Virus record (IMG/VR): IMGVR_UViG_3300035703_004076
Coordinates: 4,181 to 68,180 of that record
From: a virus
Length of the DNA: 64,000 bases
Strand: one strand, 5' to 3'
Shown here: piece by piece, positions 2,062 to 63,068 of the stretch
How positions within the stretch are numbered: the first letter of the stretch is position 1
How the letters are laid out: each line of letters begins with the position of its first letter
Notes under the pieces: model-generated
Database searches by the model: none
Seen by the model: the letters and a program-made list of their open reading frames with translations, nothing else
What the model was told of the DNA's origin: nothing
Made by a program: the position numbers and the translations under genes

Positions 2062-3300
2062 CTATCCTACAATAAAATCTGGAGGTAACTGAAACTCTTT
2101 CTTGATGCGTTCTTTAAGAACATCAAGCTCTGCTTTAGCTTCATCGTAGAGTTGTTGTCCGTTTAGTGTTACGCCACCGGGCAGCCCAATACCACTAAAC
2201 TTCTTCATGTTTGTGCCCCACTGAAGTTTAATGAGCGCACACGCATACTCACGAACGAATTCGTCCATGTAAATTTCTTTGTATGTTGATGGATCGAGCG
2301 CAACCCACGCTTCAAATATGACGTACTGATCTACAGTCCAGTCTTGCAAGTCAAGAAACACTTTGTCAGTTTTGCGATTGAAGCGAATGCCTTTTGTTCC
2401 ACGAAACATGAACTCCCATGTGGAGATGTATCGCTTGTATATGTCATACGTCACAAGATCCGTCGATGCAAGATTGAACATATTGTGAAGTGCAAACTGA
2501 TACTGAAAGTCAAACATTCCACCTAAGTTTCCGCCGATTGTCGATGACTGTTGAGGAATGACGTTTGTAACGCTGATGACTTTTTGATCTAGTGTGACAT
2601 ACTTGTTGTCAACATCACCAAACGTTGATTTAAGAACTTTTGCTTTTTCCGTTTGACCAGAAACAGAGACGGTTTCTCCTTCTTTGAACGCTACGCCGTT
2701 GGTTGATTTGAAACGTATGATTCGATTATCAACGGTTTTGTCGTATGCTGTTCCTGTTGCGCCACTCTCATCACCTACTAATACAACACCACGAATAACA
2801 TCTGCTGTATAGTCTGTTTCTAGCTTGAGGGTCGATGCAGTAATTCTGTGTTTAAGATAGCACCGTTCAACACCATCAAAGTGATAGTCTCGAAAGTACA
2901 TAAGTGCTTCATCAATACGATCTTCTACTTGATCGTCGTCTACGTTAATTTCTATAACTGGTGCACCAAGTCTGCGTAAACACCAATGAATGAGTTCTGT
3001 TCGCCCTAAGTTTGATGTGATTCCATCAGAGTCTACTGAGTTGTCTGTAGAATCAAAAACATCAAGAAGGTAACTGACAAGAATAACATCTCCAGTCTGT
3101 GGAGGAACAGTAAATGTTATCACTGCGCCTGCAAGAACGTAGTCATTTGTTTCTTGTTGTGATGATGCGTTTTGCAGAACACCGTTCAAAAACACTTGCT
3201 CAGTGTTTGGGTTTGGTATATTTGCCAAAGTGAATGTAGTGTTTGTTGAGTCTATTGGCCCCGTAGGTTTTTCTCTACAAACGAATGACTGTGTTGGCAT
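2062..3300 (-). CDS. gp13: Neck protein (T4 gp13-like) with an extra ~77-aa N-terminal beta domain
   Basis: CLRRLGAPVIEINVDDDQVEDRIDEAL..YHFDG and QWGTNMKKFSGIGLPGGVTLNG; N-terminal RExPxG..NTTFTL..EQVFLNG..DY..ITF..P..GD.ILVSY module. Confidence 0.93.
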   Translation of the reverse strand: MPTQSFVCREKPTGPIDSTNTTFTLANIPNPNTEQVFLNGVLQNASSQQETNDYVLAGAVITFTVPPQTGDVILVSYLLDVFDSTDNSVDSDGITSNLGRTELIHWCLRRLGAPVIEINVDDDQVEDRIDEALMYFRDYHFDGVERCYLKHRITASTLKLETDYTADVIRGVVLVGDESGATGTAYDKTVDNRIIRFKSTNGVAFKEGETVSVSGQTEKAKVLKSTFGDVDNKYVTLDQKVISVTNVIPQQSSTIGGNLGGMFDFQYQFALHNMFNLASTDLVTYDIYKRYISTWEFMFRGTKGIRFNRKTDKVFLDLQDWTVDQYVIFEAWVALDPSTYKEIYMDEFVREYACALIKLQWGTNMKKFSGIGLPGGVTLNGQQLYDEAKAELDVLKERIKKEFQLPPDFIVG

Positions 3301-3302
3301 AA

Positions 3303-5984
3303 CTAAGAGCCTCTATTTTCTAACGCAGCTATTTTTTGTTGCAGAGTTTTTATCTGCTCTTGTTGCTCTTTGATTGCTGTTATCAAGTATGGAACAAGCC
3401 CTGAATAATTTACTGACTGATATATTTTTTGCCCATCTTTCTCTTCATCCTTGTTGCCATCAACCACAGAAGGAATAACTTCTGCCACTTCATGTGCAAT
3501 AAGTCCGCAAATTTTTTCATCTCGGACTGTACCATCAAAGTCTTTAGGATTGTACATGACTGGTCTTAATTGACTTATGAGTGCTAGGCTTGCATCAACC
3601 GACTCTACGTTTGCTTTTAGTCTATAGTCTGATGCTGTTCCTAAAACAACTTTATTAACATTGTCTACATGGCCATAAATGTATGGAGATGCCCAAGTCA
3701 GAGCAATCCAGTTACCGGCGGTACCGTGCGATGTTGCTACGGTAGGATATGCAATTCCTTCACCTCTTACTATACTTCTCCATGAACCTATAGTATTGTC
3801 TATATCCGCATTTCCGAATGACCTAAGGTATGAGGCATACAGCGAACCGCCCACAGTAAATTCGTTTGTCTCTAAATTTATTTGCACTGGATATGGGGGA
3901 CCAAGCCAAGATGTTGTGTTACTGCCAGTACCTCTGAGAATGTATAGTATATTACTATTGCAGTGTATCATAGCACTGCGATTGTCTGTGTCTTTGAAGT
4001 GAATGGTAGGTGCCGAGTTGTTGATGGTAAAATTTCCAGCAATATCTAAATTGCCTGTATCGGCCAAGAACATACGTTGATATGCACCGCCAGAGGCCGG
4101 ATAGCTCCAGAACCCTAGCCCATTTCCGTACTGCCCTGTCATGTTATAAATTGTCCAGTTAATTGCAGCAGCACCAGTTTTAGCAGGATTGTATATAATA
4201 ATTCTGCCACCCTCGGCACTATTCACAGATGATGTAATTGAGCCATACACCGTCGAGTCGCCAGATGTTACTGTATGAGCACTAAAATTGATTTGACCTG
4301 TATTGCCTATGGTCATTCGAGTCAAATTGTTTGTGCCAAAAACAATTGGAGTGTTTGCTCTATTCCACATATAGGCTTGATTGTCAGTTCCTTGACCAAT
4401 ATACAATTCCGCAGATGCTGCGTTATTGTTTGCTCGAAATGTTATTGCAGCCGCAGAATTTGTAGGCGATTGAATTGTTATTCGTTCATTCGGTGTCGTT
4501 GTTCCTAAACCAAGTTTTGCTGACGATAAAGGTATATTGAGATTGCCGCCCAGTTGTATGCTGTTTGAGTTTAGGTCAACTTGCAGTGGATGATAGCCGT
4601 TGACTTGTGTCCAGCTTGTTGACCCTTTTGCACCTCTGAGTAAGTAAAACGTACCTGCGGTGTTTAAGAAAAATGCGCTATTAGTTGCTGCGGCAGTATT
4701 TCTATCCAAAAAGCTAATGAGAGGATCTGACGAAGAAATTGACTGATTTCCTTCAAACAAGGCAGATCCCGATACATGAAGTCTTGCTGTAGGAGTTGCA
4801 ACACCAATTCCTACATTTCCTGAGTTTGTAATTTTAATGCCGCTTGCTGACGCTGAGTGAGGTGCCAACACGAGATTTCCTGTGTCTCGACTACCCGCAG
4901 TAAATATCAATCCCTGATCACCCGCAACTGATATAGGATTATAGCTGCCGTTGCCAAGTAATGGCGTAAACCATAGTGCTCTACCGGTAGTGTCTTTGGC
5001 AGTAAACGCTGTTGTAATAATCTGATCTGGTATAGTCGATGTAATACCAGTTGTTCCTAAAACTGACAGTCCTGTGTCTGTAATAATAGCTCTTTGTGTT
5101 CCATCAACATCAAAACCAATATACGAATTTGCTGCAACGTTATCTGGATCTGCTTGTAGTACAACAGCACCTACTGCACCATTACTGCTTATTTGCCCAT
5201 ATACTGTAGAAGCGCCGTCACTATCCTCAAGCCTAATTCTTGGCTGTGCGCTCTTTATATGTAATGTTTGTTGGGGTGATGTGGTTCCTATTCCTACTTT
5301 ACCGTCACTTGTGATTGAAACACGTTCTGTGTTTAGTGTTCCAGAATTCTCATTTGATATGTGAAGTTTTCCATCGTTTGCTTCTGATGTAATGTGCCAG
5401 TTGTTTGTTGTAGTGGCATGAGTTCCTATCTGCACTTTGCTGGCAGAAAACTTTTTAAGACCAGCAAAAGTTTGTTCTTCTATAGTAACAACACCTCTTG
5501 CGGTAGAACTAGCATCAGGAAGATTGATTGTTTTTACTATAGTATTTGCTCCAAGTTCGCCTGAAGCTCCAGCAGCACCTACAGATATGTTAAAGTCTGT
5601 TCCCGAATTGCCCACAACAATATCAATCGCAGTGTTTTTAACAAACTCAACATCATTCTTGAGTGCTCTGTATGATGTTGCGGTGATGACTTGATTATCT
5701 GACGTTGGATTTGCAACAAGTGTAAGTGTGCTAAGATTGAGTGCACCTAAAGTGAGAGTGCTATCGGAGCCAAGAGAGAGTTGTACTGTGGACCAAGTGT
5801 CTGTGCCAGTCTTGCGCTTAAATTGATTTGTTTCTGGATCAAATGCAACGGTGCCTAATGGAACGTTTGTCCACGTACCGTCATTCAAAGATAGCTTTGC
5901 AAGAGCCGCAATCTTGTTGTTGATGAGTGTTACAATTTCGTCCGAAGACTGTGTTTGGAGAGGCTTTGTAAAATCTGCTACCAT
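3303..5984 (-). CDS. Tail fibre protein with C-terminal intramolecular chaperone (peptidase S74)
   Basis: GxVGIGTTxP..LHI repeats; SDYRLKANV...GLIAHEV..V...VNYSGLVPYL + coiled-coil C-terminus. Confidence 0.85.
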   Translation of the reverse strand: MVADFTKPLQTQSSDEIVTLINNKIAALAKLSLNDGTWTNVPLGTVAFDPETNQFKRKTGTDTWSTVQLSLGSDSTLTLGALNLSTLTLVANPTSDNQVITATSYRALKNDVEFVKNTAIDIVVGNSGTDFNISVGAAGASGELGANTIVKTINLPDASSTARGVVTIEEQTFAGLKKFSASKVQIGTHATTTNNWHITSEANDGKLHISNENSGTLNTERVSITSDGKVGIGTTSPQQTLHIKSAQPRIRLEDSDGASTVYGQISSNGAVGAVVLQADPDNVAANSYIGFDVDGTQRAIITDTGLSVLGTTGITSTIPDQIITTAFTAKDTTGRALWFTPLLGNGSYNPISVAGDQGLIFTAGSRDTGNLVLAPHSASASGIKITNSGNVGIGVATPTARLHVSGSALFEGNQSISSSDPLISFLDRNTAAATNSAFFLNTAGTFYLLRGAKGSTSWTQVNGYHPLQVDLNSNSIQLGGNLNIPLSSAKLGLGTTTPNERITIQSPTNSAAAITFRANNNAASAELYIGQGTDNQAYMWNRANTPIVFGTNNLTRMTIGNTGQINFSAHTVTSGDSTVYGSITSSVNSAEGGRIIIYNPAKTGAAAINWTIYNMTGQYGNGLGFWSYPASGGAYQRMFLADTGNLDIAGNFTINNSAPTIHFKDTDNRSAMIHCNSNILYILRGTGSNTTSWLGPPYPVQINLETNEFTVGGSLYASYLRSFGNADIDNTIGSWRSIVRGEGIAYPTVATSHGTAGNWIALTWASPYIYGHVDNVNKVVLGTASDYRLKANVESVDASLALISQLRPVMYNPKDFDGTVRDEKICGLIAHEVAEVIPSVVDGNKDEEKDGQKIYQSVNYSGLVPYLITAIKEQQEQIKTLQQKIAALENRGS

Positions 5985-5995
5985 AGGTTATACAC

Positions 5996-6478
5996 CTAGT
6001 CCTTGTCTTTTTTGACTTTCTTTGGCGGCAGTCGTCTCTCCCTCTCGTTAGAAAAAATGAGTATCAAGTCTTTCAGCACCGAATGGTTGCTGATTCTGTC
6101 CATGTTTTCCAAAATCGATTTCATCTCAGTTAGAGCGATGAAACCACTAACAATACTTTCTACCGGAAAGTCGAAGCCTACCAGTAAGTATTTATGTACA
6201 ACGTAAGTTACAATGATTGTGGTGCAGTAAACGAACGTTTTTGCTATTGTTCGTGACAGCGCCGAGCTAGTGATGCGTTCTTTTTCTTTGAGTGAAGCAA
6301 GTATACCAGTCACTAAATCCACAAATATCAAGAACATAACAGCAAAAATCACAGTAGCAATAGGAGCTAAAAATGCTGCTATAAGAAGCATAGCACTCTT
6401 AAACAGACCAGTAGCAGAAAAGTTATCTGCTACTGATTGAGCATACTCTTTTAGTATGTCGTAAAAGTGATGTTTCAT
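5996..6478 (-). CDS. Holin, Phage_holin_4_1-like
   Basis: 3-4 hydrophobic helices, DLVTGI..A....I.S..L.RT..K, E.KSILEN motif, basic C-tail. Confidence 0.75.
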   Translation of the reverse strand: MKHHFYDILKEYAQSVADNFSATGLFKSAMLLIAAFLAPIATVIFAVMFLIFVDLVTGILASLKEKERITSSALSRTIAKTFVYCTTIIVTYVVHKYLLVGFDFPVESIVSGFIALTEMKSILENMDRISNHSVLKDLILIFSNERERRLPPKKVKKDKD

Positions 6479-6511
6479 CGTAGAGACTCCTAAGAGACTG
6501 TGTGTTATATT

Positions 6512-9289
6512 TTATGATAATCCAAATTGTGTTTTATAGTAGGCGTGTATGCTTTGAATTTCAGCATCAGATAAGCATCTTGGGAAAATTAACACAACGT
6601 AGATTTCTCCATTTGTAGACCAGTTTTCTGATGGGCCTGTTATTCGAGATCCTATTCTTAATTCGTTTGATCCTGTATAAAGCACCGAAGGTGTCTGAGA
6701 TCCAATATATTCACCATTTCTATAAAAATTCTCTTGGCCTGTTGTGTTATTATACGATACTGCCAACCCATATGTTGTGTTTGTTGCAAGGTTTGCCGTT
6801 GCTGATGCTCCTCCAGAACCCCATCTATGTGCTCCTAAATTATTAGCGTTTGTTGCAAGTCCCCAAGACTGTGCTGTTGAATTAACGCCCCAATGAACAA
6901 TATGTTTCAAAAATGCACTGAGATCTGTAGGTGTTTTACAATATGCTATTACCGTTCTGTTTGTATTTCCTGTAGGTATATTTGCGAGAGACGTAGCACT
7001 ACCCATAGCATCTCCTCCGACAAATTTAATGCCCGATGTGATTGCGTTGTATGAATAGTTTCCGCTCAAAGTGACGTGATTTGCTGATGATGAAATATCA
7101 AACCATGTTGCGCCAGATCCTGGATAGCTATCATTTTTTGTAGAGTTGATATGAAATACAGCTTCATTTAACAAGTCTGCAATAACAGGATTGTAGGCAT
7201 TCCATCGTGCATTGAGATATGATTCTACTTGCTTTATTTCTTTTGTGTTTAGTGTCTTACTAAAGTATAAGTGCTCGCATATTTTTCCAGCAAATGGTCC
7301 TGATGTTCCATTAGTTTGAGTTCCAAAACTAAACCAAGTGTCTGCAACACTTGCCGATCTGGTGAGTGATGCCTGATAAATTTGCAGCCCGTTGTTTCGT
7401 ATTGTGAATGTTCCTGCCGACCCTGCAACTCCGTTGTGTTGAAACGTAAGAATTAATGTGCCCGACGGCGGCATAAAATTGGTTGTGTCTACAATAGCAT
7501 TTGAACATATTCTCAGCTTTCTTCCTGAGCTATTCAAAAACCTAACAGCATCACCCTGAGCCCCAGTTGCGTTGTTGAGTCCGTAAGTGTAGATAGTCCC
7601 ATCTCCAAAAGTCGAGTAATTCACGACATGGAATATTGTAAATGGTTTGTTGGTATTGTAATTAGACCATGAGTTGTATATTACATCGTCAACACCATCG
7701 AATGATACAGCAGCACGACCATTAACTCCGTTAACTCCGGTTCTCACTAATGGACGTTTTGTCGAATCTGTCTGTGCTATATTTCGTCGATTAACCGATT
7801 GATCTTGCCATACAGCAAGTCCAGTGCTATCGGCGGTGATTGCGTTGTTATTTATATCAAAAATCCCTGCATCTGCTTTAAGCCAAAGCTCAAGTCCAGA
7901 TATGTTTGCTGGAAATTGTTCTGTGTAAAACTGTGATTTTCCTGCATTATAGTTTTGAGTAACTTCTGATGCAGTAAGTTCTTTGTTGTATACGAAAGCG
8001 GACGCCAACTGTCCGTTGAATCCGTTTGATCCCAAAGCATATGATCCTATAAATAAAGGACCTCCGCTATGATTGAAATTTGTTTTGTATGAGCTGTTAG
8101 TGGCTTCTAGTTGACCATTAACATACAAGTTAAACCCATTTGTTGTGCTAAATGTTACAGTAACGTTGTACCATTTGTGAGTTTCTATTGTTGTGGTGCT
8201 TGCAATATGTGTCCAAGTGCTATTGTGTCCTGCCAGAAATTTGTTACTATAAATTTCCCATCCTGAAGGTCCCCAAAATGCGTGTGGCGAAGAGTCGTTT
8301 CCGCTTATCAAGTTCTTAAACCCATTCAAGTTATTGAACTTTACCCACACAGATTTTGTATATGGTGAGTTTGCTATGATTGAAGAGCCATTAGCTACTG
8401 TGCCATATGTAGATTCTGCAAACGTCAATTTGCCATCTGAGTATGTGGGTGTGGTATTTAATGTAACGTTGTTGTTACTGCCACTAATATCAGACCACGT
8501 GGTTCCAGACCCAGAATAGCTAACAGAATCTCCAGCATCAATGTGAAGTTTCAGATTAGTTCCTGCAACAATATACCGAGTCTTGAAGTAGTCATACATT
8601 GAACTAACTTCAGCAGCACTTAATGACTTGTTGTAGAGTAATGCGGCTCCGTATTTTCCTTGAAATACTCTCGCAGCGCCGTTGTCCCACCCGAGACGAA
8701 GCGTGGCTAGGGGAACTGTTCCAATAGCGGCGGTGTATACGTTTCCTGCCGTTCCGTTTATGTATGGCGTAATGTTAGATGCAGTAACGACAAGCGTAAC
8801 TAATGACCATTGATTTGCAGGAACAATTATGCCTGTGTTAAATGTATATTGTGTGCCATTGTAAATGAATCGTAAAGTTGTGTTTCCGTCTCCAGAAAAT
8901 TGAAGTCCTGTTCCGTTATTTCCTACGGATCTATCAATTACAATACCTGCATATGCAGATTGCGTTGATCTAGGGTTTATCCATGCCATTATGGTGAACG
9001 TGTTTGTTGTCAGGGCAGACGATAATGTGGTTTGTGCCGGAGTATTGGTGGCATCCGCAGACATCACTAAATGACCTCCATATCGGTTAGCATAGCCAAC
9101 AATAGTGGAATTCAAAGTAGCGGCGTTTTTGTTTGATGACAAGTCTTGCCAAACAGCCCCTGCTCCAGGATAGCTGTTTGGATCATTTGCATCAAAGTAT
9201 GCAACTAGACTGTCAGTAACAGGAATCGATAGGCGATTTTTTTTCTTTGCGGCAGTTTTGCCAACTGTGGCCCCAAACGATAATGGCAT
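6512..9289 (-). CDS. Multi-LamG/concanavalin-like lectin domain virion protein (putative adhesin), 4 domains
   Basis: Repeated L..xDA....SYxGxGxxWxDLS and YN+xLxxxEVxxxY units; one LELWLKADAG-type unit; N-terminus MPLSF. Confidence 0.8.
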   Translation of the reverse strand: MPLSFGATVGKTAAKKKNRLSIPVTDSLVAYFDANDPNSYPGAGAVWQDLSSNKNAATLNSTIVGYANRYGGHLVMSADATNTPAQTTLSSALTTNTFTIMAWINPRSTQSAYAGIVIDRSVGNNGTGLQFSGDGNTTLRFIYNGTQYTFNTGIIVPANQWSLVTLVVTASNITPYINGTAGNVYTAAIGTVPLATLRLGWDNGAARVFQGKYGAALLYNKSLSAAEVSSMYDYFKTRYIVAGTNLKLHIDAGDSVSYSGSGTTWSDISGSNNNVTLNTTPTYSDGKLTFAESTYGTVANGSSIIANSPYTKSVWVKFNNLNGFKNLISGNDSSPHAFWGPSGWEIYSNKFLAGHNSTWTHIASTTTIETHKWYNVTVTFSTTNGFNLYVNGQLEATNSSYKTNFNHSGGPLFIGSYALGSNGFNGQLASAFVYNKELTASEVTQNYNAGKSQFYTEQFPANISGLELWLKADAGIFDINNNAITADSTGLAVWQDQSVNRRNIAQTDSTKRPLVRTGVNGVNGRAAVSFDGVDDVIYNSWSNYNTNKPFTIFHVVNYSTFGDGTIYTYGLNNATGAQGDAVRFLNSSGRKLRICSNAIVDTTNFMPPSGTLILTFQHNGVAGSAGTFTIRNNGLQIYQASLTRSASVADTWFSFGTQTNGTSGPFAGKICEHLYFSKTLNTKEIKQVESYLNARWNAYNPVIADLLNEAVFHINSTKNDSYPGSGATWFDISSSANHVTLSGNYSYNAITSGIKFVGGDAMGSATSLANIPTGNTNRTVIAYCKTPTDLSAFLKHIVHWGVNSTAQSWGLATNANNLGAHRWGSGGASATANLATNTTYGLAVSYNNTTGQENFYRNGEYIGSQTPSVLYTGSNELRIGSRITGPSENWSTNGEIYVVLIFPRCLSDAEIQSIHAYYKTQFGLS

Positions 9290-9310
9290 AGTGTCACCTA
9301 GTTCCTAAAA

Positions 9311-12300
9311 TTAGTTGTTCTCAAGAGCAGCGAGTCGAGCTTCAAGAGCTTCTTTCTCTGCTTGTAGTGCATCCACTTTTGCATTGAGTTCTTGTATTGC
9401 TTTGAACGCAAGCGATACCATGTTTCCGTATGCAAGAGCGTCTGGTGTTCCATCGGCTGCATACTGCACAAACTCAGTCAGGCCAGCATCATGTACTTCT
9501 TCTGCAATAAGTCCACCAAATACTTTGTCACCATCATTGTTTCCTTTGTAGGTAACAGGACGCAACTCAAGAACTTCGTTAAGTCCGTGTGTTGCATTTT
9601 GAACATCAGTCTTATACTTCAACGAAGATGTCGATCTCAATAAACTTCCGTTTGCATCAACAACAAGGTTTGCTGCACTAGCTGTCGTTGCATTATATGG
9701 AGATTGAGCTTGCAATCCAGTGTTTATCAACCCATCATTTCTTGCATAAAACAAGATCCCAGGCGTCGAGTTTCGCACCGTTAAAGCATAAGTCGAGTTG
9801 CTTGTGCTAGTTCCATTGATTAATAAGCGAGTATCTGTAGAACTTGCAGTACCTATTCCTACACATCCGGAACTGTCAATTCTCATTCTTTCTGTAGATG
9901 ATGTTCCAAATACTATAGGTGTAGATCCATTGGTGTAAATTAATGCGTTTGCGGTGTTTTGAAAACACAATAGTCCTAAGTTGGCATTACTTATTCCTAC
10001 TGTAGTTCCTGTCGCTGAACCTCCATGAGTGGCAATTTGAGTTCCTTTGTATGTAGAGGCACTCCAATAATCATTTACTTGAGCTTCTACAATCGAAATC
10101 GCATCGGCGCTTGAACCACGGGATACAAGTCTTCCTCCAACAACATCAAGCCGATTTGCTGGACTTGTAGTATTAATACCTACGTTACCTCCAGTCTCGT
10201 ATATTGCACTGTTAGCAATCGTGTTAGCATCAGTCCACTTAGACAAGTAGTTTGCACTACCAGCTCCGTCGATTCCTGCACTAGCAGAACCAACAACAGA
10301 GTCTACAGTTTGAGAAGAACCAAGAACTCTAATTGTTCCTGCACTATCTTTAACAATAACAAATGTCAAAACATCAGTTGAAGAGCTGGCCGTTGGTGCA
10401 GTTCCTCCGAACCATTGAACTCCAGTAGCTACTGCACTACCGTTTACACTACAAGCACTTCCGTAAGTGTATGTAGTATTTCCTGCTACGATAGCACTAA
10501 CAGTAGTTACTTTGCCATTTTCTGTTGGTACATTTGTAAACGCCCAAGTTGTTACACTAGCATTAAGAGCACCCAATACAGCATTACCTACTGATGTATC
10601 AACAGTTAATGTTCCAGAACTTGGAGCAAGTGATGTGTTGAACGCATTGGCTACAGCCTCGGTGTATCGTGTTGCATGAACAGTTCCTGCAGAACTAATA
10701 GATACAAGAGCTGTACCAGAACTGTTTTGTGCTTCAAACAAGTTTGCACTTTGAGATGCAGCACCTTTGACAACAAGACCTTTTGCAGCAGCATTGAGAG
10801 TGACAAGAGACAATGATGGATACGTTGCGTCCCATCCTCCAAACCAAGCTGGGTATCCTCTGCTACCTCCACTGGATGTTCCAAGAGTAATTATTCCACC
10901 ACCACCAAGTATTCTACTATTCCAACTTCCACCAGCAGAATTTGAGGTTTCAAAGTCTATAATACCAGTGTTAGCTCCCATGATTCGTAACAAACCATAG
11001 TTACCAGAACCACCAGCTACGACACCACGTATGTTAAAGGCTGGATTGTTTCCAATTTCTCCACTAACTATTAAAGGTGCACTGTTCCATCCCCCACCAC
11101 TAAAAGTTACTGAAGAGGTAGTAAATGTTGTAGCACCAGAACTAGAAACAGTAACTAAATTTGTTGCAGAACTGTTTTGAATTTGAAACAAGTTACCACT
11201 CTGAGATGCAGCACCTTTTACTGTTAAAGGGACTGTCGCTGCAACATCAGCTTCAATAGTTCTTGTGTTTACAAATGATGTTCCGTTGTGTGCTAAAAAA
11301 TGTCCTTTAGCAGCAGATGTGATTACAACATCAGAAAGACCATCAAGATCACTTGCACCGCCAGAAGCAGCAGCAGAGTTGACCCATGCAGTTCCGTTAT
11401 ACTTGAGAACTTGATCTGTGCTTGGTGAACTGATAGTAACATCAGACAAATCATCAAGAGCAGATGGTATTGTTGGTTTGTTGCTAAGATCAGCATACGA
11501 ACCACTGGTTGCTACAGTCGCAAGAGAAGGTGCGCCAGTCAAGCTGGAGTATGCACCATCAAATAATGTGGGTTTATCTGTAAGGTCTGTATACGAGCCA
11601 CTAAACAAAGTTGGCTTATCAGTAAGATCGGTATACGAGCCACTGAACGTACTATCAGCCGCATTTGCCCAACCAGTTCCGTTGTACTTCAGAACTTGTC
11701 CAGATGACGGAGAAGTAATTGAAACTTCACCCAAATCACTAAGATTTGGTGCAGAAGCACTTTGAAGAGATGCAACGTCAGCTTCAACAGCAGTAACACG
11801 AGTGTCAAGTGAGCTAATATCACTTTCAACTTGTGTCAAAGATGGAATTGTAGGCTTGTCACTCAAGTCGTTGTATGAACCACTTGTTGCTACTGTTGCA
11901 AGACCTGTAACCCGAGCTACTGGAACTGTTCCAGCAGAAACGCTACCATCTTTGTCAACAGAGAACAATGCAGTTCCAGATGAGTTTTGCACTTCAAGCA
12001 AGTTTGCGGTTTGAGATGCAGCACCTTTAACAACAAGACCTTTAGTTGCGGCAGCACCAGACTCAACAAAAGCTCCATATAACGCAGAAAACAAACCTGC
12101 GGTATTGATTGTCGCTCTAGCGACAATTCCACCATAAATGCTGGCTTTAGTACCAAACGACATAGATCCGTCGTTAGTATTTCCTGTAATAGTTATTGAA
12201 GCACCTGTAGTAGTACCACCCGTAACTCCAGCAAGAGATAAAGTTGCACCAGCACCAATAATTGAAGCCCCGACTTGAATATTGCTGGCAAATCGTTTTT

Positions 12301-13231
12301 CTCCAGCAAAAATTTGAAATCCTGTATCAACAACTCCTGATGTCGTTGTGCTGGCTACAGGCAACGCAGAGTTTACCCAAGCACTGCCATTAAATTTCAA
12401 AAATTGATTGTTTGCAGCAGATGTAATTGTTACATCACTAAGATCGTCAATCGCCGATGGTATTGTTGGCTTGTTAGTAAGGTCTGTGTACGAGCCACTG
12501 AACGTACTATCAGCAGCATTTACCCAACCAGTTCCGTTGTATTTAAGAACTTGTCCATTAGATGGCGTTGTGATACTAACATCACCCAAATCTCCAAGAT
12601 CAGGAGCAGTTGCACTCTGAAGAGCAGCAACATCAGATTCAACGGCAGTCACACGAGTGTCAATAGCAGATACATCAGAAGCAACATCACCAATCTGTCC
12701 AGCAACGGTTGTTGCAAAATTTTCGTCGTTGCCTAATGCTGCCGCAAGTTCGTTGAGTGTATCAAGAACCGCAGGAGCACTATTAACAACACCAGCTACA
12801 GCAGTGTCAACATATGTTTCTGTAGCAAGACCACTAATGCTAGGAATAGTTGGCTTGTCGGTGAGGTCTGTGTATGATCCACTAAACAGAGAAGGTTTGT
12901 TAGTAAGATCAGTATACGAACCACTAAATGCACTCGCTTCAAGAGCAGCAACATCACCTTCAACAGCAGTAACACGAGTGTCAAGTGAGCTAATGTCACC
13001 TTCAACTTGTGTCAAAGATGGAATAGTTGGTTTATCAGACAGATCATTGTATGATCCGGATGTTGCAACGGCAGCAAGATTTCCAGCATCTGCTTTTGCA
13101 GCAACATCTGTTTGAAGAGTTGCAACATCACTCTGAAGTGTATCGAGCACACCAGATACTTCTGGTGCTAAGTCTACAAGCTCAACCGATCCGTCTTTTA
13201 ATTGTTTTCCTGAAACTTCTGTCTTTGACAT
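9311..13231 (-). CDS. Long fibre protein: SGSYxDL repeats, internal WxGGxAPT domain, C-terminal S74 chaperone
   Basis: SGSYNDLSDKPT and LxDLxDVxIxSPxxGQVLKYNGTxW repeats, LDTLNELAAALG motif, SSLKYKTDV...GLIAEEV C-terminus. Confidence 0.82.
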   Translation of the reverse strand: MSKTEVSGKQLKDGSVELVDLAPEVSGVLDTLQSDVATLQTDVAAKADAGNLAAVATSGSYNDLSDKPTIPSLTQVEGDISSLDTRVTAVEGDVAALEASAFSGSYTDLTNKPSLFSGSYTDLTDKPTIPSISGLATETYVDTAVAGVVNSAPAVLDTLNELAAALGNDENFATTVAGQIGDVASDVSAIDTRVTAVESDVAALQSATAPDLGDLGDVSITTPSNGQVLKYNGTGWVNAADSTFSGSYTDLTNKPTIPSAIDDLSDVTITSAANNQFLKFNGSAWVNSALPVASTTTSGVVDTGFQIFAGEKRFASNIQVGASIIGAGATLSLAGVTGGTTTGASITITGNTNDGSMSFGTKASIYGGIVARATINTAGLFSALYGAFVESGAAATKGLVVKGAASQTANLLEVQNSSGTALFSVDKDGSVSAGTVPVARVTGLATVATSGSYNDLSDKPTIPSLTQVESDISSLDTRVTAVEADVASLQSASAPNLSDLGEVSITSPSSGQVLKYNGTGWANAADSTFSGSYTDLTDKPTLFSGSYTDLTDKPTLFDGAYSSLTGAPSLATVATSGSYADLSNKPTIPSALDDLSDVTISSPSTDQVLKYNGTAWVNSAAASGGASDLDGLSDVVITSAAKGHFLAHNGTSFVNTRTIEADVAATVPLTVKGAASQSGNLFQIQNSSATNLVTVSSSGATTFTTSSVTFSGGGWNSAPLIVSGEIGNNPAFNIRGVVAGGSGNYGLLRIMGANTGIIDFETSNSAGGSWNSRILGGGGIITLGTSSGGSRGYPAWFGGWDATYPSLSLVTLNAAAKGLVVKGAASQSANLFEAQNSSGTALVSISSAGTVHATRYTEAVANAFNTSLAPSSGTLTVDTSVGNAVLGALNASVTTWAFTNVPTENGKVTTVSAIVAGNTTYTYGSACSVNGSAVATGVQWFGGTAPTASSSTDVLTFVIVKDSAGTIRVLGSSQTVDSVVGSASAGIDGAGSANYLSKWTDANTIANSAIYETGGNVGINTTSPANRLDVVGGRLVSRGSSADAISIVEAQVNDYWSASTYKGTQIATHGGSATGTTVGISNANLGLLCFQNTANALIYTNGSTPIVFGTSSTERMRIDSSGCVGIGTASSTDTRLLINGTSTSNSTYALTVRNSTPGILFYARNDGLINTGLQAQSPYNATTASAANLVVDANGSLLRSTSSLKYKTDVQNATHGLNEVLELRPVTYKGNNDGDKVFGGLIAEEVHDAGLTEFVQYAADGTPDALAYGNMVSLAFKAIQELNAKVDALQAEKEALEARLAALENN

Positions 13232-13271
13232 TTTAGTTACCTTTAATATGCCCTATAAGTTAAACTATTTA

Positions 13272-15500
13272 TTACTCAGTTACCCAACCAGCACTTGCAG
13301 TAGCAACGTCTGTATTACTGAACCAATATAAACGAATTCTTGTGGGAAGAGGTGTAGACCCAAATTCATGATGAAATAGACGAACTTTATGTGCGTTTAC
13401 TGTAGATTGATTGCTACCTTCATCCCATCCGTAATTTGCTCCCCCAGCAAACATATTATCGTGGTATCGAACCCATCCTTCACCATACTTTGTAAATACA
13501 ACTACCATATCAGGGAATCTCCCTTTGTTGTGAGTGAGTGTGCGAGTAGTAAAAAAGCCACTTACCCAGTTAAATTCAGAGTCTTGATATATCTCTACAC
13601 TTGATCCCGAAGCAACCGCAGGCCCTCCAGGTGAAACCACATAATTTCCTGTGGCATAATTCACAAACAGCTTCCATCCAGAATCTGGTGCAGTTGTAAA
13701 TGTGATTGTGTCTCCAGAGATAGTATAATCGTTTCCAACACCTTCTTGTTGTAACAGACCGTTCAAGAATACTTGCTCAGTTCCAGCTACTGGTGTGTTT
13801 GCAAGAGTAAATACTGCGTTCGATCCGTTTACAGAACCACTTGGTACTTCTCGTGTGACAAATGCGGTTGACTCAATATCAACAATACGAGTTTCATGAT
13901 CAGCAATATCAGCTTCAACTTCAGTTAAAGAAGGTATTGTCGGCTTATTAGTAAGGTCATTGTATGAACCACTTGTTGCAACTGTAGCAAGTCCACTAAC
14001 ACGAGCAACTGGAACAGTTCCAGCAGCCACACTGCCGTCTTTATCAATAGAGAATAGTTCTGTTCCAGAGCTATTTTGTACTTGAAATAATTTTGCAGTT
14101 TGTGTTGAGTTTCCTTTAACAACCAACGCTATTGCATCAAGATCGGTCTTTACAAATAAAGTTCCTCCGTCAAATCCGTTGATGTACTCTCTAAAATGAG
14201 ATTTCTTATAAAAGAATTTTTCACCATCAATAGTTTGTGGGGCAAATGTAACCAATCCTGTTACTCCCATTCCTGCATTTGGTATGGTATAATTCTTCCA
14301 TGCAGTTCCATCCCATCGAACAAACTGCCCTGATGCTAATGAAGTAATGGTGACATCAGACAAATCGTCCAATACGGAAGGAATTGTTGGCTTGTTAGTA
14401 AGATCGTTGTATGATCCACTGAACGTAGAAGGCGCAGCGCCGTTTACCCAGCCAGTTCCATTATACTTTAATATCTGATCTGCACTTGGCGATGTTATAG
14501 TAACATCAGACAACGCACTCAAAGACGTTACTGGATCTGGAGCGTTCTCAAGAGCAGTAACACGAGAGCTAAGAGCACTGTCGGCACTTGTTCGTGCATT
14601 TGTTTCTGCTTGAAGTCCATCTTCAATTACACCAGCACGAAGATCAAACGCAGCGTCAGCAGCTTCAAGAGCTGTAATGTCACTTTCAGCAGCAGTCATT
14701 CTGTTGCCGAGAGATGTGACTGATGTTTGTACTGAAGATACTGTGGTGTCTAAAGCATCGTCAGCAGCAATTCGTGCCGCTTGTTCGTCAGACAAATCTG
14801 AAGTCAAAGACGAAACGCTCGATTGAACTGATGATAGTGAAGATTGCAACGTTGCTACGTCACCTTCAACCGCAACAATATCAGCTTCGGCAGATGTCAA
14901 TCGTGAATCAACACCAGACAAATCACTATCCAAAGATGTGATGTCGTTTTGTGCGGTGAACAACTCACCCTCGGCTGTGGTTAATCGAGAGTTTAATTGA
15001 TTGATGGATGTGTTAATGTCCAAGCTCACTACAATCATGTCAGAAATGTAGTTGACAAGAATTGCATCACCAGCCTGTGGAGGAATTGTGAATGTTATTG
15101 TGTCATTTTCAATTACATAGTCTGAGTTGGCGCCGGCGTTGAGAAGAGCACCGTTTAAGAACACTTGCTCAGTTCCTATGTTTGGAACATTTGCAAGAGT
15201 GAATTGTGTGTTGCTTCCGTTGGTTGCACCAACTGGAATTTCTCGTGTTACAATCGAGCCGCCGATGACTGCATCAAGATCGGCTTTACGCACTGCATCA
15301 TTATCGTCTACTGGTGCAGCAAGATTCTTAATTTGATGAGAGCCAAAATCAAAATCTCCCGTTACAGCTACCGAGCCGTCACGTTTGATAAGTTCTGATC
15401 CGTCTTTGAGTTTGTCGAGTTCGATTGTACCATCCGCAATTTGACTGTTTTGGATGGTGATATTTTTGATCTGTTTATTACCACGAATCTGTGTTGACAT
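13272..15500 (-). CDS. Fibre/adaptor protein with coiled coil and two copies of the RExPxG..VFLNG..DY domain
   Basis: Domain copies at ~15048-15251 and ~13657-13863; heptad segment; unique C-terminal tip. Confidence 0.75.
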   Translation of the reverse strand: MSTQIRGNKQIKNITIQNSQIADGTIELDKLKDGSELIKRDGSVAVTGDFDFGSHQIKNLAAPVDDNDAVRKADLDAVIGGSIVTREIPVGATNGSNTQFTLANVPNIGTEQVFLNGALLNAGANSDYVIENDTITFTIPPQAGDAILVNYISDMIVVSLDINTSINQLNSRLTTAEGELFTAQNDITSLDSDLSGVDSRLTSAEADIVAVEGDVATLQSSLSSVQSSVSSLTSDLSDEQAARIAADDALDTTVSSVQTSVTSLGNRMTAAESDITALEAADAAFDLRAGVIEDGLQAETNARTSADSALSSRVTALENAPDPVTSLSALSDVTITSPSADQILKYNGTGWVNGAAPSTFSGSYNDLTNKPTIPSVLDDLSDVTITSLASGQFVRWDGTAWKNYTIPNAGMGVTGLVTFAPQTIDGEKFFYKKSHFREYINGFDGGTLFVKTDLDAIALVVKGNSTQTAKLFQVQNSSGTELFSIDKDGSVAAGTVPVARVSGLATVATSGSYNDLTNKPTIPSLTEVEADIADHETRIVDIESTAFVTREVPSGSVNGSNAVFTLANTPVAGTEQVFLNGLLQQEGVGNDYTISGDTITFTTAPDSGWKLFVNYATGNYVVSPGGPAVASGSSVEIYQDSEFNWVSGFFTTRTLTHNKGRFPDMVVVFTKYGEGWVRYHDNMFAGGANYGWDEGSNQSTVNAHKVRLFHHEFGSTPLPTRIRLYWFSNTDVATASAGWVTE

Positions 15501-15570
15501 TTTTGTTTCCGTAAGTAAAATTCTTTGTTCTAAATCTGTATGGTAATACTATAGTCCACTATGAGAGTGG

Positions 15571-15597
15571 GTGGTGCCCCACTAGGTAGGGCACCAC
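15571..15597 (-). terminator. Strong hairpin just downstream of the 856-aa gene (terminator or mRNA-stabilizing stem)
   Basis: GTGGTGCCC...GGGCACCAC inverted repeat; no clear U-tract on the minus strand. Confidence 0.55.
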
Positions 15598-15620
15598 TTT
15601 AATTGTCTCTAAGACTTAAA

Positions 15621-18191
15621 TTAAGCCTTGAGGTAGCTAACGCGGATGCGATCACCACTAACAGGGGCAGTCGAGAACGTAATAGTTCCGCCCGAGATAG
15701 AGTAGTCGTTTCCAACTCCAGGCTCTTGTAAGAGTCCGTTGAGGTAAACGTGCTCGCTGTTCAATACAGGACTGTGTGCTAACGAGAAGTCAGCATTAGT
15801 TCCGTTGATTGTTCCACTTGGAGACTCACGAGTGATAACGTTTGCAACGTAGAGTACAGTAGACTCAAGCGCAGCAATATCAGACTCAGCAGTGTCCATG
15901 CGACCTTCAAGGGCAACAATGTCAGCTTCAGCAGTGTCCATGCGACCTTCAAGGGCAACAATGTCAGCTTCAGCAGTGTCCATGCGGCCTTCAACAGCAT
16001 CAACTTCACCTTGAAGGGAAGTATCAGCAGCAGCACGAGCAACTTCTTCTGCGTCAATCTCAGCTTGAAGAGCACTGTCAGCAGCAATACGAGCGGCTTC
16101 TTCGTCAGACAAGTCTGATGCGAGCGAAGCATCGGCAGCAGCACGAGCAACTTCTTCTGCGTCAATCTCAGCTTGAAGAGCAGCTTCAGCAGCCATAGCT
16201 CTTACTTCTTCTGCATCAACGTCAGCAGCACGGTCAAGAACTTCTTGAGCGAGATCGGCTTCAACAGCATCAACCTCAGCTTGAAGTGCAGCATCGCCAG
16301 CAATACGAGCAGTCTCTTCGTCTGAAATGTCAGAAGCGAGTCCAGCTTCAGCAGCCATAGCACGAGCCTCTTCTGCATCAATGTTACCTTGAAGGGTAAT
16401 ATCAGCAGCGGCACGAGCAGCTTCCTCAGCATCAATCTCAGACTGAAGGGCAGCTTCTGCGCCAAGAGCACGAGTCTCTTCTGCATCAATTTCGCCCTGA
16501 AGCAAAGTATCAGCAGCAGCTCTTGCAACTTCTTCAGCATCAACTTCTGCTTGAATAGCAGCTTCAGCAGCAGCAGCACGAACTTCTTCAGCATCAATTT
16601 CAGCTTGAAGTGCGCCAATTTGTCCAGCTACAGTTGTAGCAAAGTTCTCGTCGCCACCAAGAGCATCGGAGAGTTCTTTGAGTGTATCAAGTACAGCAGG
16701 AGCACTGTTCACAAGAGCAGCGATCTCTGTATCTGTGTAGCTATTAGCACTTGCAAGTACAACAGCATCAGCAGCGATGTAATCAGCTTCTACAGCATCG
16801 ATGTTTCCTTGAAGAACAAGGTCAGCAGCGGCACGAGCAGCTTCTTCTGCATCAACTTCAGCTTGTACTCCAGCAACTGCACTGATACGAGCAGACTCTT
16901 CAGCAGCAATATCAGAAGCCAAATCAGCCTCAGCAGCCATAGCACGAGTCTCTTCTGCGTCTACATCAGCAGCGCGGTCAAGAACTTCTTGGGCAAGGTC
17001 AGCTTCAACAGCATCAACCTCGGCTTGGAGAGCAGCTTCAGCAGCCTCAGCACGAGCTTCCTCAGCATCGATGTTTCCTTGGAGAGTTACATCAGCCGCA
17101 GCTCTTGCAACTTCTTCAGCATCAATCTCAGCTTGGAGAGCAGCTTCAGCAGCCATAGCACGAGTTTCCTCGGCGGTTACGTCAGCAGCACGGTCAAGAA
17201 CTTCTTGTGCAAGGTCAGCTTCAACTGCATCAACCTCGGCTTGAAGAGCTGCATCAGCAGCGGCGCGAGCTACTTCTTCTGCATCAACTTCTGCCTGAAT
17301 AGCAGCTTCAGCAGCCATAGCACGAGTCTCTTCATCAGAGATGTCAGAAGCCAATCCAGCTTCAGCCGCAGTTGCACGAGCAATCTCATCAGCAAGATCC
17401 GACTCAAGAGTAGAAATATCCGACTCAGCAGTGTCCATACGACCTTCAAGAGCAACAATGTCACCCTCGCCGGTTGTCAGACGAGAATCCAAAGCAGAAT
17501 CAGCATTTGTTCGAGCAAGAGTCTCAGCAGCAAGTCCGTTCTCAAGATCGGTTACACGACCATCCATAACAACATCGGCAGCTTCGAGAGCAGCGATGTC
17601 AGACTCAGCAGTGTCTAAACGAACGTCAAGTGCAGCTTCAGCAGCTTCAGCACGAGCAGTTTCGTCAGCAAGGTCAGATGCTACAGCATCAATGTTGCTT
17701 TGAAGGGTTGAATCGGCAGCAGCACGAGCAAGCTCTTCGGCAGCAAGATCAGCAGCGATAGCAGCCTCGGCAGCTTCAGCACGAGCAACTTCAGCAGCAA
17801 GATCGGACTCAAGAGCAACAATGTCACCCTCGGCAGTTGACATACGTCCTTCGAGAGAATCAATATCTCCCTCGGCAGTTGTCATGCGACCTTCGATTGC
17901 GTCAAGTCTTGGATCTAAGTCGTCTTGAACTTGAGCACGAAGAGTCTCCAATCCAGCATCAACGTATGCTTTATTAGCAGCATCGCCTGAAGCAGTTGGT
18001 GTAGCTACGTTTACAACTTTGTTAGAACCAGCGTCTACGTTTCCGGCGAAAGCAACAGATCCATCACGGAGAATGACATCTGCGCCCTGTGCAAGTTTAC
18101 TAAGCTCGATGCCTGCATTAGCAGCAATCTCAACGTTAGTAATCGTTGCGGATTTAATTTGTGTATTACCACGAATTTTGGTTAAAGCCAT
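15621..18191 (-). CDS. Long acidic Ala/Glu-rich coiled-coil fibre (fibritin/whisker-like) with C-terminal RExPxG domain
   Basis: ~650 aa of AEExARAAAD..LQxEIDA repeats; N-terminal TKIRGNTQIK...DAANKAYVD; strongly biased codons. Confidence 0.75.
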   Translation of the reverse strand: MALTKIRGNTQIKSATITNVEIAANAGIELSKLAQGADVILRDGSVAFAGNVDAGSNKVVNVATPTASGDAANKAYVDAGLETLRAQVQDDLDPRLDAIEGRMTTAEGDIDSLEGRMSTAEGDIVALESDLAAEVARAEAAEAAIAADLAAEELARAAADSTLQSNIDAVASDLADETARAEAAEAALDVRLDTAESDIAALEAADVVMDGRVTDLENGLAAETLARTNADSALDSRLTTGEGDIVALEGRMDTAESDISTLESDLADEIARATAAEAGLASDISDEETRAMAAEAAIQAEVDAEEVARAAADAALQAEVDAVEADLAQEVLDRAADVTAEETRAMAAEAALQAEIDAEEVARAAADVTLQGNIDAEEARAEAAEAALQAEVDAVEADLAQEVLDRAADVDAEETRAMAAEADLASDIAAEESARISAVAGVQAEVDAEEAARAAADLVLQGNIDAVEADYIAADAVVLASANSYTDTEIAALVNSAPAVLDTLKELSDALGGDENFATTVAGQIGALQAEIDAEEVRAAAAEAAIQAEVDAEEVARAAADTLLQGEIDAEETRALGAEAALQSEIDAEEAARAAADITLQGNIDAEEARAMAAEAGLASDISDEETARIAGDAALQAEVDAVEADLAQEVLDRAADVDAEEVRAMAAEAALQAEIDAEEVARAAADASLASDLSDEEAARIAADSALQAEIDAEEVARAAADTSLQGEVDAVEGRMDTAEADIVALEGRMDTAEADIVALEGRMDTAESDIAALESTVLYVANVITRESPSGTINGTNADFSLAHSPVLNSEHVYLNGLLQEPGVGNDYSISGGTITFSTAPVSGDRIRVSYLKA
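15886..15994. repeat. 42-bp tandem repeat x2.5 (EGRMDTAEADIVAL, two heptads)
   Basis: cagcagtgtccatgcgaccttcaagggcaacaatgtcagctt repeated at 42-bp period. Confidence 0.9.
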
Positions 18192-18354
18192 TTTACTATT
18201 CCTTAAAGAATTATGGTTTTGTTATGTGTTGTGAAATAACGAGTCTCAGCGTCAGTCAAGAGCATGACAGAAAGCAGTCGAGGTCAATAGAGAGACCCGC
18301 AGAATAATGACTCAATTTGTGTGTATGATGTAGTAGTTATAGCCTGTATGCAGT

Positions 18355-18362
18355 TATTTATA
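18355..18362 (-). promoter_or_regulatory. T4-type late promoter TATAAATA
   Basis: Perfect consensus ~165 nt upstream of the 856-aa gene. Confidence 0.8.
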
Positions 18363-18421
18363 CACGGAAGGAGCTAGTTTCCAAAATTATTTTGGAAAAG
18401 TGTAAACTTTTTGTAAGTGTG

Positions 18422-19861: not shown

Positions 19862-19876
19862 ACAATACTCTCAACT

Positions 19877-21634: not shown

Positions 21635-21637
21635 ATC

Positions 21638-49880: not shown

Positions 49881-50094
49881 ATGTTTTAGCTGCGTTGAGA
49901 ATGCCTTCAGTAACGAGTGCTACGTCATTCAAAAAATGGTGGCACACTACAGGACCGTCGGCAGAACCTCGAACGACGGCTGCGGCTCGTGTCTGTAACT
50001 GTATCAGGGCTACTTGCTTAAACAGCTCTGTACGTTCAGTACGCTCTCTTACGTCTCGTGGTTTCTTTTTCTCTTTTGACATATCACTAAGCAT
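49864..50094 (-). CDS. Hypothetical protein
   Basis: ORF track. Confidence 0.55.
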   Translation of the reverse strand: MLSDMSKEKKKPRDVRERTERTELFKQVALIQLQTRAAAVVRGSADGPVVCHHFLNDVALVTEGILNAAKTFGEDK

Positions 50095-51272: not shown

Positions 51273-51279
51273 AATGTTC

Positions 51280-51561: not shown

Positions 51562-51565
51562 GGGA

Positions 51566-52118: not shown

Positions 52119-52119
52119 A

Positions 52120-62992: not shown

Positions 62993-63068
62993 TGGCGGAA
63001 CCGATGGGACTTGAACCCACGACCTCTCCCGTGACAGGGGAGCGTTCTAACCACTGAACTACGATTCC
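62993..63068 (-). tRNA. tRNA-Asp(GTC), CCA encoded
   Basis: GGAATCGTAGTTCAGTGGTTAGAACGCTCCCCT-GTC-ACGGGAGAGGTCGTGGGTTCAAGTCCCATCGGTTCCGCCA folds as a 76-nt cloverleaf. Confidence 0.96.

Follow-up and report, generated by a model that had tools for sequence, protein, structure and literature searches.

Domain copies and fiber N termini in the window

We analyzed a 64-kb stretch of viral DNA (positions 4,181 to 68,180 of the 68-kb IMG/VR record IMGVR_UViG_3300035703_004076, termed the window), in which a beta domain of ∼70 amino acids (aa) recurs on the neck protein gp13 and on several fiber proteins. CheckV estimates the completeness of the record at 47%. From 1 to 48 kb, every gene lies on the minus strand, in T4 order: gp5, gp25, gp6, gp7, gp8, a 2962-aa DUF4815 protein, two small open reading frames (ORFs), p866, p585, a DUF285 protein, three fibers of 856, 742, and 1306 aa (f856, f742, and f1306), a LamG protein, a holin-like membrane protein, a further fiber (f893), gp13, gp14, and gp15. 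The body of gp13 (aa 96 to 404) corresponds to the head-tail adaptor Ad2 family phrog_211 (E value, 3.4e-38) and is 27% identical to T4 gp13 in the alignment. It matches 1659 phage records by tblastn, and those listed are annotated as neck protein or gp13. Its neighbors gp14 and gp15 are recognized by PF11649 and PF16724, with gp5, gp25, gp6, gp7, and gp8 encoded upstream. A megablast comparison of this region with 50,697 phage records gave no match. Among the matches listed, the gp13 body was at most 37 to 38% identical to full-length gp13 of cyanophages and pelagiphages (tblastn), and two-piece Sinorhizobium matches covering 58% of the query had up to 44% identity. Judged from its sequence, the phage is T4-like and only distantly related to cultured phages.

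The original prediction for this stretch had taken the domain for a socket and a conserved N terminus of the fibers (T-x-I-x-G-x-Q-I-K, here given as T-x-I-R-G-N-x-Q-I) for a plug that docks into it, and we use these two names below. The N termini of f856 and f742 are homologous over ∼80 aa (45 to 50% identity). All three fibers had been described as sharing a related N terminus, and the sequences are as quoted; that of f1306 (MSKTEVSGKQLKDGS), which is conserved in relatives, is related but belongs to a distinct type (plugB). In six IMG/VR relatives, an f856-like gene with the domain at its end is followed by an f742-like gene, and an f1306-like N terminus comes next in all six; the architecture of f742 is the same in these relatives, the counterpart of its domain b being the extreme C terminus in four of them. 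The last 97 aa of f856 are 87 to 92% identical to those of the six relatives, and gp13 of relatives is 65 to 69% identical. Only the first ∼36 residues of the N-terminal module are specific: its second half (aa ∼37 to 81) was considered as a plug and rejected, being a widespread fiber motif that occurs internally in phiM9 gp131 and in a Microcoleus phage protein. The f856 gene contains nested tandem repeats with periods of 42, 54, 108, and 216 nucleotides (nt) at window positions 15865 to 17896, where the local GC content is 0.506 versus ∼0.41 around it; we estimate the length of the coiled coil at roughly 100 nm.

With the 72-aa C-terminal end of f856 as a tblastn query against the whole 68-kb record, we found the domain in seven places, the query included. 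Identity to the query was 62% for f742 domain b, 49% for the gp13 N terminus, 46% for f742 domain a, and 37% for the full copy in the 2962-aa protein (aa 1765 to 1835), and the five copies have 15 invariant positions in common. Two partial matches beside the last copy (E values, 0.015 and 0.09) represent an N-half at aa ∼1721 to 1760 and a C-half at aa ∼1850 to 1874. When all stop-to-stop ORFs with 60 aa or more (327 in total) were scanned with a hidden Markov model (HMM), no further match was better than an E value of 0.38. The searches thus confirm the domain at the gp13 N terminus, twice in f742, and at the f856 C terminus, with coordinates within a few bases of those first given. The 2962-aa protein also contains the domain, not twice as proposed but as one full copy plus two halves, an arrangement in which one copy may be nested in a loop of another.

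Table 1. Features of the window. The tblastn E values refer to the f856 C-terminal query; AF2, AlphaFold2.
Feature	Position	Strand	Evidence
gp13 neck protein, 412 aa: N-terminal socket-type domain, flexible linker, gp13 body	2062..3300	-	phrog_211
gp13 N-terminal domain, aa 6-80	3061..3285	-	tblastn, E 3.4e-16; AF2 model
Variable cassette between f1306 and gp13: LamG protein (925 aa), holin-like membrane protein (160 aa), S74 fiber (893 aa)	3303..9289	-	Pfam
Holin-like membrane protein	5996..6478	-	Phage_holin_4_1, E 4.9e-12
LamG protein	6512..9289	-	three Laminin_G_3 stretches, E 4e-52
f1306, 1306-aa fiber: plugB-type N terminus, C-terminal Peptidase_S74 chaperone	9311..13231	-	PF13884, E 4.2e-4, just under cutoff
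f1306 plugB module, aa 1-42	13106..13231	-	plugB HMM
f742, 742-aa fiber: NKQ-type candidate plug, plug-adjacent domain a, shaft, domain b, 125-aa tail	13272..15500	-	tblastn, HMM; same architecture in six relatives
f742 domain b, aa 547-617	13650..13862	-	tblastn, E 1.6e-26
f742 domain a, aa 83-154	15039..15254	-	tblastn, E 9.2e-18
f742 candidate plug, aa 1-12, MSTQIRGNKQIK	15465..15500	-	predicted contacts, all three copies
f856, 856-aa repetitive coiled-coil fiber: NTQ-type candidate plug, C-terminal candidate socket domain	15621..18191	-	sequence; coiled-coil-type Pfam/PHROG matches
f856 C-terminal candidate socket domain, aa 785-856	15624..15839	-	tblastn, HMM
f856 N-terminal module, aa 1-82; candidate plug proper, aa ∼1-36 (MALTKIRGNTQIK...)	17946..18191	-	alignment
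DUF285 (BspA-like repeat) protein, 479 aa	18422..19861	-	Pfam, E 1e-106
p585 and p866 (Collar domain), fiber-like	19877..24238	-	relatives carry divergent domain copies
Domain copies in the 2962-aa DUF4815 protein: N-half, full copy (28505-28717), C-half	28388..28849	-	tblastn (full copy, E 2.4e-13), HMM scan
Subtilase, 614 aa	45562..47406	-	Peptidase_S8, E 3.6e-48
tRNA-Asp	62993..63068	-	

The domain is a small beta sandwich found in a very large family

An AF2 model of gp13 aa 1 to 95 forms a beta sandwich with six strands over aa 3 to 81 (mean predicted local distance difference test score [pLDDT], 82.8; 59 residues at 90 or higher), followed by a low-confidence linker at residues 82 to 95. 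By this model, the domain has the small beta-sandwich (jellyroll) fold of ∼60 to 70 aa seen in the gp10-like modules XD2 and XD3. A Foldseek search of the PDB with the gp13 N-domain model returned no match at an E value of 1e-3 or better. The weak matches, all at 5e-3 or worse, were to CBA120 TSP4-N (20 to 23% identity), to the R4C distal tail protein (27% identity), and to N-domains of T7 gp17, and further weak ones were to podophage portal-tail and neck chains. The XD structures 7rfo, 7rej, and 7rfv scored E values of 1.3e-2 to 5.2e-2 and TM scores of 0.45 to 0.49, with 20 to 23% identity. In BFVD, 34 matches had an E value of 1e-3 or better, and they include the neck protein of a clade member, T7-like tail fibers, and other fiber proteins.

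Pfam scans of the five copies (E value, ≤10) gave only sub-threshold matches: DUF2460 in all five (best, 1.2e-4), Phage_T7_tail in one, and single weak matches to Flg_new_2, DUF4430, CBM_X2, and DUF4183; no match to Big_2, I-set, or FN3 was obtained. The best PDB sequence match to the domain profile, a K1 depolymerase chain (9k4a), was weak as well (E value, 6.9e-4). The family is nevertheless very large, with 12,674 representative clusters at E values of 1e-3 or better and 3,864 at 1e-10 or better. Most of the top 150 representatives have 2 to 5 tandem copies, and most copies reach the extreme C terminus. A full N-terminal plug occurs in ∼10 of these 150, always in the arrangement plug plus domain ... 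domain.

A predicted joint between f856 and f742

We then modeled the C-terminal 97 aa of f856 together with the N-terminal 160 aa of f742, in three copies each and with their own shallow alignments. The predicted complex obtained interface scores (ipSAE) of 0.88, 0.89, and 0.89, compared with 0.00 for the best of three controls, with a partner pLDDT of at least 88 and a contact agreement between runs of at least 96%. The predicted interface is threefold symmetric, trimer on trimer: residues 1 to 6, 9 to 10, and 12 of f742 contact residues 817 to 823 (LNGLLQE), 827 to 829 (GND), 840 to 841, 844, and 847 to 848 of f856, a DR pair being among them. The peptide-in-socket geometry that had been suggested before any structure prediction is what the model returns. 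Among solved complexes, 58 of 80 reach the score mark used to judge such predictions, and among mismatched pairs 2 of 110 do, a calibration that holds only roughly here. The result supports binding without showing binding, and we consider the f856-f742 joint likely. The domain probably serves as the socket into which the next fiber inserts its first dozen residues, which are conserved, such that fibers join end to end.

Candidate sockets often precede plug genes in diverse viral loci

Scanning viral contigs with an alignment of the plug, we found 55 loci (plug identity, 32 to 90%) that yielded 49 nonredundant ORFs of the plug type shared by f856 and f742 (plugA). Their sources include four complete records (42, 45, 51.5, and 95 kb) and four of jumbo size (257 to 350 kb; 71 to 98% complete), and the cassette appears portable, being present in T4-like, siphovirus-like, and jumbo-sized viral records. 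The 49 ORFs begin with the consensus M[AS]xT[KQ]IRGN[TK]QI, which hardly varies. An ORF ending in the domain was located directly upstream (≤150 nt) of the plug ORF in 26 of the 48 evaluable cases, compared with 11 of 503 control ORFs (≥150 aa, same loci), and the gaps range from -3 to 142 nt, many of them from 1 to 13 nt. Many of these upstream ORFs are tiny (87 to 170 codons, stop to stop), with little beyond the domain, and a possible start codon precedes the domain in all 17 inspected.

The plug ORFs themselves end in the domain in 36 of 43 complete cases, and in 23 of 43 a plugA or plugB ORF comes next. This next ORF often begins with the f1306-type module M..T.[VI]RG.Q[IV].D..[IV]QR.DLD (plugB HMM), and a triad composed of a socket gene, a plugA fiber ending in a socket, and a plugB gene thus recurs far outside the clade of the window. 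Co-occurrence of plug and socket, which the original prediction had named as a check across T4-like phages, was found across diverse viral loci, and together with the predicted complex, an independent line of evidence, it supports the assignment of socket and plug; the proposed order f856, f742, f1306 fits both the gene order and the recurring triad. For the f742-f1306 joint, gene order and recurrence place the chances slightly on the favorable side. The original prediction also cast f742 as a two-way splitter and f856 as possibly self-chaining, and both roles stay hypothetical.

The smallest free sockets (L145, L148, L151, and L159) share a conserved peptide of the type QYIRP..IRHV.NE just before the domain, which could be their own anchor on the virion. 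One of these loci, L159 (G047; positions 9629 to 19889), consists of a free 87-codon socket ORF, a 690-codon NTQ-plug fiber ORF, and then five fiber ORFs (221, 519, 517, 514, and 262 codons), each with a short NKQ-type plug that the domain immediately follows. The arrangement resembles a bouquet of receptor-binding fibers serving as alternatives; gp13 of G047 is without the extra domain.

In cultured phages, a 546-aa plug fiber (locus L150) matches 368 records, and many of the 30 listed are annotated as head or capsid decoration proteins. The plug was not found among these 30 matches, all but one of which start at query residue 22 or later, the exception at residue 4. A literature search for the peptide motif gave no match, one for neck fibers in T4-like myoviruses gave nothing relevant among the papers listed, and none of 35 plug-bearing proteins from a protein search has a meaningful name in its source; the family thus appears unannotated.

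Weighing a docking function against a building block and a folding nucleus

Several results speak against a dedicated docking function. Single proteins contain up to 24 matched stretches of the domain, and the huge family with its tandem arrays looks like a general building block more than a dedicated socket. The only hhalign match between the domain alignment and T4 gp10 covers 17 columns (gp10 aa 305 to 321) at a nonsignificant probability of 1.3%, and we rejected homology to T4 gp10 by profile on this value; with weak fold similarity and a negative profile comparison, the domain cannot be counted as an established member of the gp10/XD family. What the complex score expresses is the confidence of a model, not a measurement, and a job with three plus three chains is unlike the calibration set. 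No socket gene was detected upstream of 22 of the 48 plug genes, and in 20 of 43 cases a plug fiber with the domain at or near its end is not followed by a plug gene, which means that the terminal copy must often do something else. Finally, the loci share common descent and are not phylogenetically independent, and the cassette could have been inherited as one unit.

The domain might accordingly be a general fiber building block or weak adhesin, in the style of Ig-like decorations, with no dedicated partner, its copy on gp13 simply decorating the neck. The cluster count, the mostly distal C-terminal tandem copies, the absence of a full-length N-terminal plug from 139 of the top 150 domain proteins, and the plug fibers that no plug gene follows are all in line with this. 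We nonetheless regard it as improbable, given that the predicted interface uses the conserved N-terminal peptide, that the neighbor signal (26/48 versus 11/503) is left over, that Pfam returned weak DUF2460 and T7 tail-fiber N-domain matches in place of any Ig-type one, and that both the f856 C-terminal end and the plug are very highly conserved.

Alternatively, the C-terminal copy could be a folding or trimerization nucleus like the foldon of fibritin, the N terminus binding another site on the virion and the gene order reflecting inheritance as a cassette. The 36 plug fibers have the domain at their end irrespective of a following plug gene, and the layout of f856, with an N-terminal module, a long coiled coil, and a small C-terminal domain, resembles that of fibritin. 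On the other side, BLASTP of f856 against T4 wac gave a best E value of 0.077, over 35 aa of coiled-coil repeat, and the C-terminal end is the 72-aa beta domain and not a foldon. The idea that f856 is a fibritin homologue is thus not supported, and a folding nucleus would leave unexplained both the predicted interface and the free ORFs of 87 to 170 codons located 1 to 13 nt before plug genes. We give this explanation little credence, slightly less than the building block. Docking modules that join successive fibers are the best overall explanation in our judgment, one that we hold with some confidence.

Is gp13 the root of the fiber chain?

T4 gp13 had been said to lack the domain, and indeed T4 gp13 and all 40 listed phage gp13 proteins align with the window protein only from residue ∼93 to 100. 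The fusion is retained in 87 of the best 120 listed protein clusters (404 to 418 aa, down to 54% identity) and in all four relatives with gp13 on the contig, and the nearest gp13 without it, among the clusters listed, has about 320 aa. A distant gp13 homologue (L187:14083-15393; 437-codon ORF; 29 to 37% identical) contains the domain as an insertion at ORF residues 137 to 207, which is an independent fusion of the domain to gp13. This insertion is flanked by Ser/Gly-rich linkers, and the start codon of the ORF is likely non-ATG. That it replaces the fibritin-binding domain III of T4 was considered and rejected: the part of the protein that holds it aligns with T4 domain II (residues 54 to 188).

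The distribution of free sockets also points toward the neck. A complete 51.5-kb siphovirus-like record (L182) has its socket and plug genes between the head-closure (Hc1) and Neck1 genes, and its plug fiber matches a "head decoration" PHROG; in L150, socket and plug genes are located just after the portal gene. In four T4-like records with a fused gp13 (the window, G026, G031, and G034), no socket gene lies directly upstream of the first-tier NTQ fiber; at this place, the two T4-like records with a plain gp13 and such a fiber (G039, complete, and G047) contain a free socket ORF of 87 codons (stop to stop). These counts are low, and the records are clustered. In the tree, a single clade (support, 99/94) unites f742 domain a with the gp13 N-domains, and identity between the two reaches 59% in G026. 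Since f856 has the N-terminal module without an adjacent domain and the gp13 copy is closest to f742 domain a, gp13 could supply this domain in trans. The gp13 positions equivalent to the predicted interface (15 positions, one of them a window-only insertion) have an entropy of 0.93 bits versus 1.52 bits for the rest (one-sided P, 0.017).

Against a root at the neck, we note that the free sockets, in 18 of 20 cases, group in a separate clade (98/94) with the gp13 copy outside it, and we rejected the possibility that the gp13 N-domain is a fused free-standing socket, as it groups with f742 domain a. The conserved LNG-LQ and DY stretch doubles as the signature of the family, and its conservation may have structural reasons. 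With its 12 copies, gp13 would present monomeric domains on flexible linkers, as opposed to the trimeric socket of the prediction. In L149, a 170-codon p585-like ORF has a socket at its end and lies 4 nt ahead of a plug fiber, an arrangement that points to proteins on the baseplate side as the root in that locus. Moreover, the 2962-aa protein and the p866- and p585-like proteins of relatives have domain copies.

The last two of these findings could mean that the fiber chain is real and rooted on the baseplate side, on a p585- or p866-like protein or the 2962-aa protein, with another role for the gp13 copy. Fibers usually attach to baseplates, and the p866-like, p585-like, and 2962-aa proteins are all encoded between gp8 and the fibers. 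The domain alignment matches p866- and p585-like proteins of relatives (798/845/807 aa and 502/311/306 aa), and giant homologues of the 2962-aa protein in two other T4-like records have domain copies. The tail-fiber-like protein of S-BM3 matches the domain at aa 22 to 82, phrog_18673 connects the p585-like N terminus of L149 with the gp13 N-domain and the f856 C-terminal end, and p866 of the window has a weak, nonsignificant hhalign match at aa 243 to 269. A p585-like gene is directly upstream of f856 in L138, L139, L141, and L142. Conversely, the p585-like proteins of the window clade have no detectable C-terminal socket, the PHROGs matched by p585, p866, and the 2962-aa protein are fiber-like or of unknown function only, and the cassette occupies head and neck modules in non-T4 records. 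We consider a baseplate-side root rather unlikely, though it deserves serious attention.

The gp13 N-domain could also contact fibers only transiently, for example by holding folded-back fibers via f742 domain a, and not serve as a permanent root. T4 whiskers hold the long tail fibers, and the close relationship between the gp13 N-domains and f742 domain a would suit such a contact. G034, however, has a fused gp13 and an NTQ-plug fiber, and its 53 kb (37% complete) showed no f742-like protein; we think this explanation improbable, on a par with the folding nucleus. As for gp13 as the root of the chain through a gp13-f856 joint, the fusion logic and the distribution make it a tentative proposal, with chances that we put somewhat below even.

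Comparison with known docking systems

The trimeric beta-module docking face and the conserved N-terminal peptide on the next fiber are both established elsewhere. One study describes, for T4 gp10 (modules XD2 and XD3), CBA120 TSP4 and TSP2, and G7C gp66, how a trimer of such modules forms a face that docks a partner trimer (PMC8825819), in agreement with the earlier statement that G7C and CBA120 tailspikes dock through gp10-like domains; the window domain may itself be such a module. The modules of gp10 and TSP4-N are likewise small beta sandwiches of ∼60 to 70 aa, and the predicted f856-f742 complex is also trimer on trimer. Here, by contrast, the module is found at the C-terminal end of a coiled coil, in free ORFs of 87 to 170 codons, and on a neck protein, the proposed partner is no head domain but a short peptide at the N terminus that is highly conserved, and the similarity is weak.

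The same logic of a docking domain on one fiber and an N-terminal peptide on the next is seen in the Klebsiella podophages with dual receptor-binding proteins (RBPs; KP32, K11, and KP34), where RBP1 has a branching domain and RBP2 a conserved docking peptide (PMC13352976). The peptide sequence and the phage groups differ, the root there is a T7-like tail adaptor, and the joints proposed here would be end to end, in up to three tiers.

In T4, an extra domain III of gp13 docks fibritin trimers by their N-terminal domain, 12 per neck, as described in PMC12929629. The comparable layout of f856 and the position of its gene in the same block upstream of gp13 are reminiscent of this system, which offers a precedent for a root at the neck; the extra domain of the window gp13 is, however, N-terminal and unrelated to T4 domain III. 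Adaptor proteins of the family of the gp13 core commonly have a beta-dock domain that connects fibers, and the "chain-like fibers" of phage A1002 are built in another way, from dimers that sit on a rope protein (both PMC13730344).

The N-terminal domain of T7 gp17 gives weak Foldseek and Pfam matches to the domain; in T7, this fold is on the fiber side of the joint. The T4 long tail fiber is encoded by consecutive genes in proximal-to-distal order (gp34, gp35, gp36, and gp37), and its segments join end to end. The joints proposed here would differ in using one repeated pair of domain and peptide, with no gp35-like hinge protein.

Neighboring genes

Between f1306 and gp13, the genes vary among relatives in number, kind, and length, which fits a variable distal receptor-binding set. 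At the position of the LamG protein, relatives have proteins of 246 to 1161 codons with an MP[LF]SFG N terminus. The holin-like membrane protein is encoded inside the fiber cluster; its homologue keeps this place, being separated from the downstream gp13 by one fiber gene in most relatives and by two in L118; in L081 and in the sister clade (L089 and L098), it is immediately upstream of gp13. The DUF285 gene lies between p585 and f856 and looks inserted, considering the four loci (L138, L139, L141, and L142) in which the p585-like gene directly precedes f856. The subtilase gene is upstream of the baseplate genes, and in S-BM3 a giant protein annotated as peptidase S8 adjoins the tail-fiber-like gene. 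Positions 50000 to 64000 of the window have a GC content of up to 0.44 to 0.49 and only short ORFs, on both strands, along with the tRNA gene of Table 1; the record is labeled "provirus" in IMG/VR.

Proposed mechanism and its meaning

We propose that the ∼70-aa beta sandwich is a docking module that would work like the XD2 and XD3 modules of T4 gp10 and CBA120. Three copies at the C-terminal end of a trimeric fiber would form a face for the N-terminal peptide M-x-x-T-K/Q-I-R-G-N-T/K-Q-I of the fiber encoded by the next gene. In this way, f856 would join f742, and f742 would join f1306 via its distal domain copy, f1306 bringing the distal part, which is variable, along with an S74 chaperone that cleaves itself. 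The outcome would be a multisegment fiber encoded from proximal to distal, and the copy fused to gp13 would most likely tie the first-tier fiber f856 to the neck. What differs from the known systems is the placement of the module at the C-terminal ends of coiled-coil fibers, in free mini-proteins, and on a neck protein, together with a peptide that is new to the literature searched and the proposed multitier, end-to-end use.

A wider proposal, which we regard as speculative and rather doubtful, is that a two-letter plug-socket code (NTQ in the first tier; NKQ or plugB in later ones) builds multisegment, branched fibers from the head-tail junction instead of the baseplate, that in this T4-like clade the first socket, fused to gp13, gives up to twelve long, jointed, adhesive collar fibers, and that the cassette has spread among unrelated groups of phages as a self-contained add-on organelle.

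If the docking function is true, one small domain and a 12-residue peptide would explain how fiber segments are joined in many uncultured phages, from 42-kb genomes to 350-kb jumbo-sized records. Fiber architecture would become readable from gene order, as a socket gene, a plug fiber ending in a socket, and the next plug, and the docking principle of gp10 and the XD modules, described in baseplates and in branched tailspikes, would hold for end-to-end joints and for a neck protein as well.

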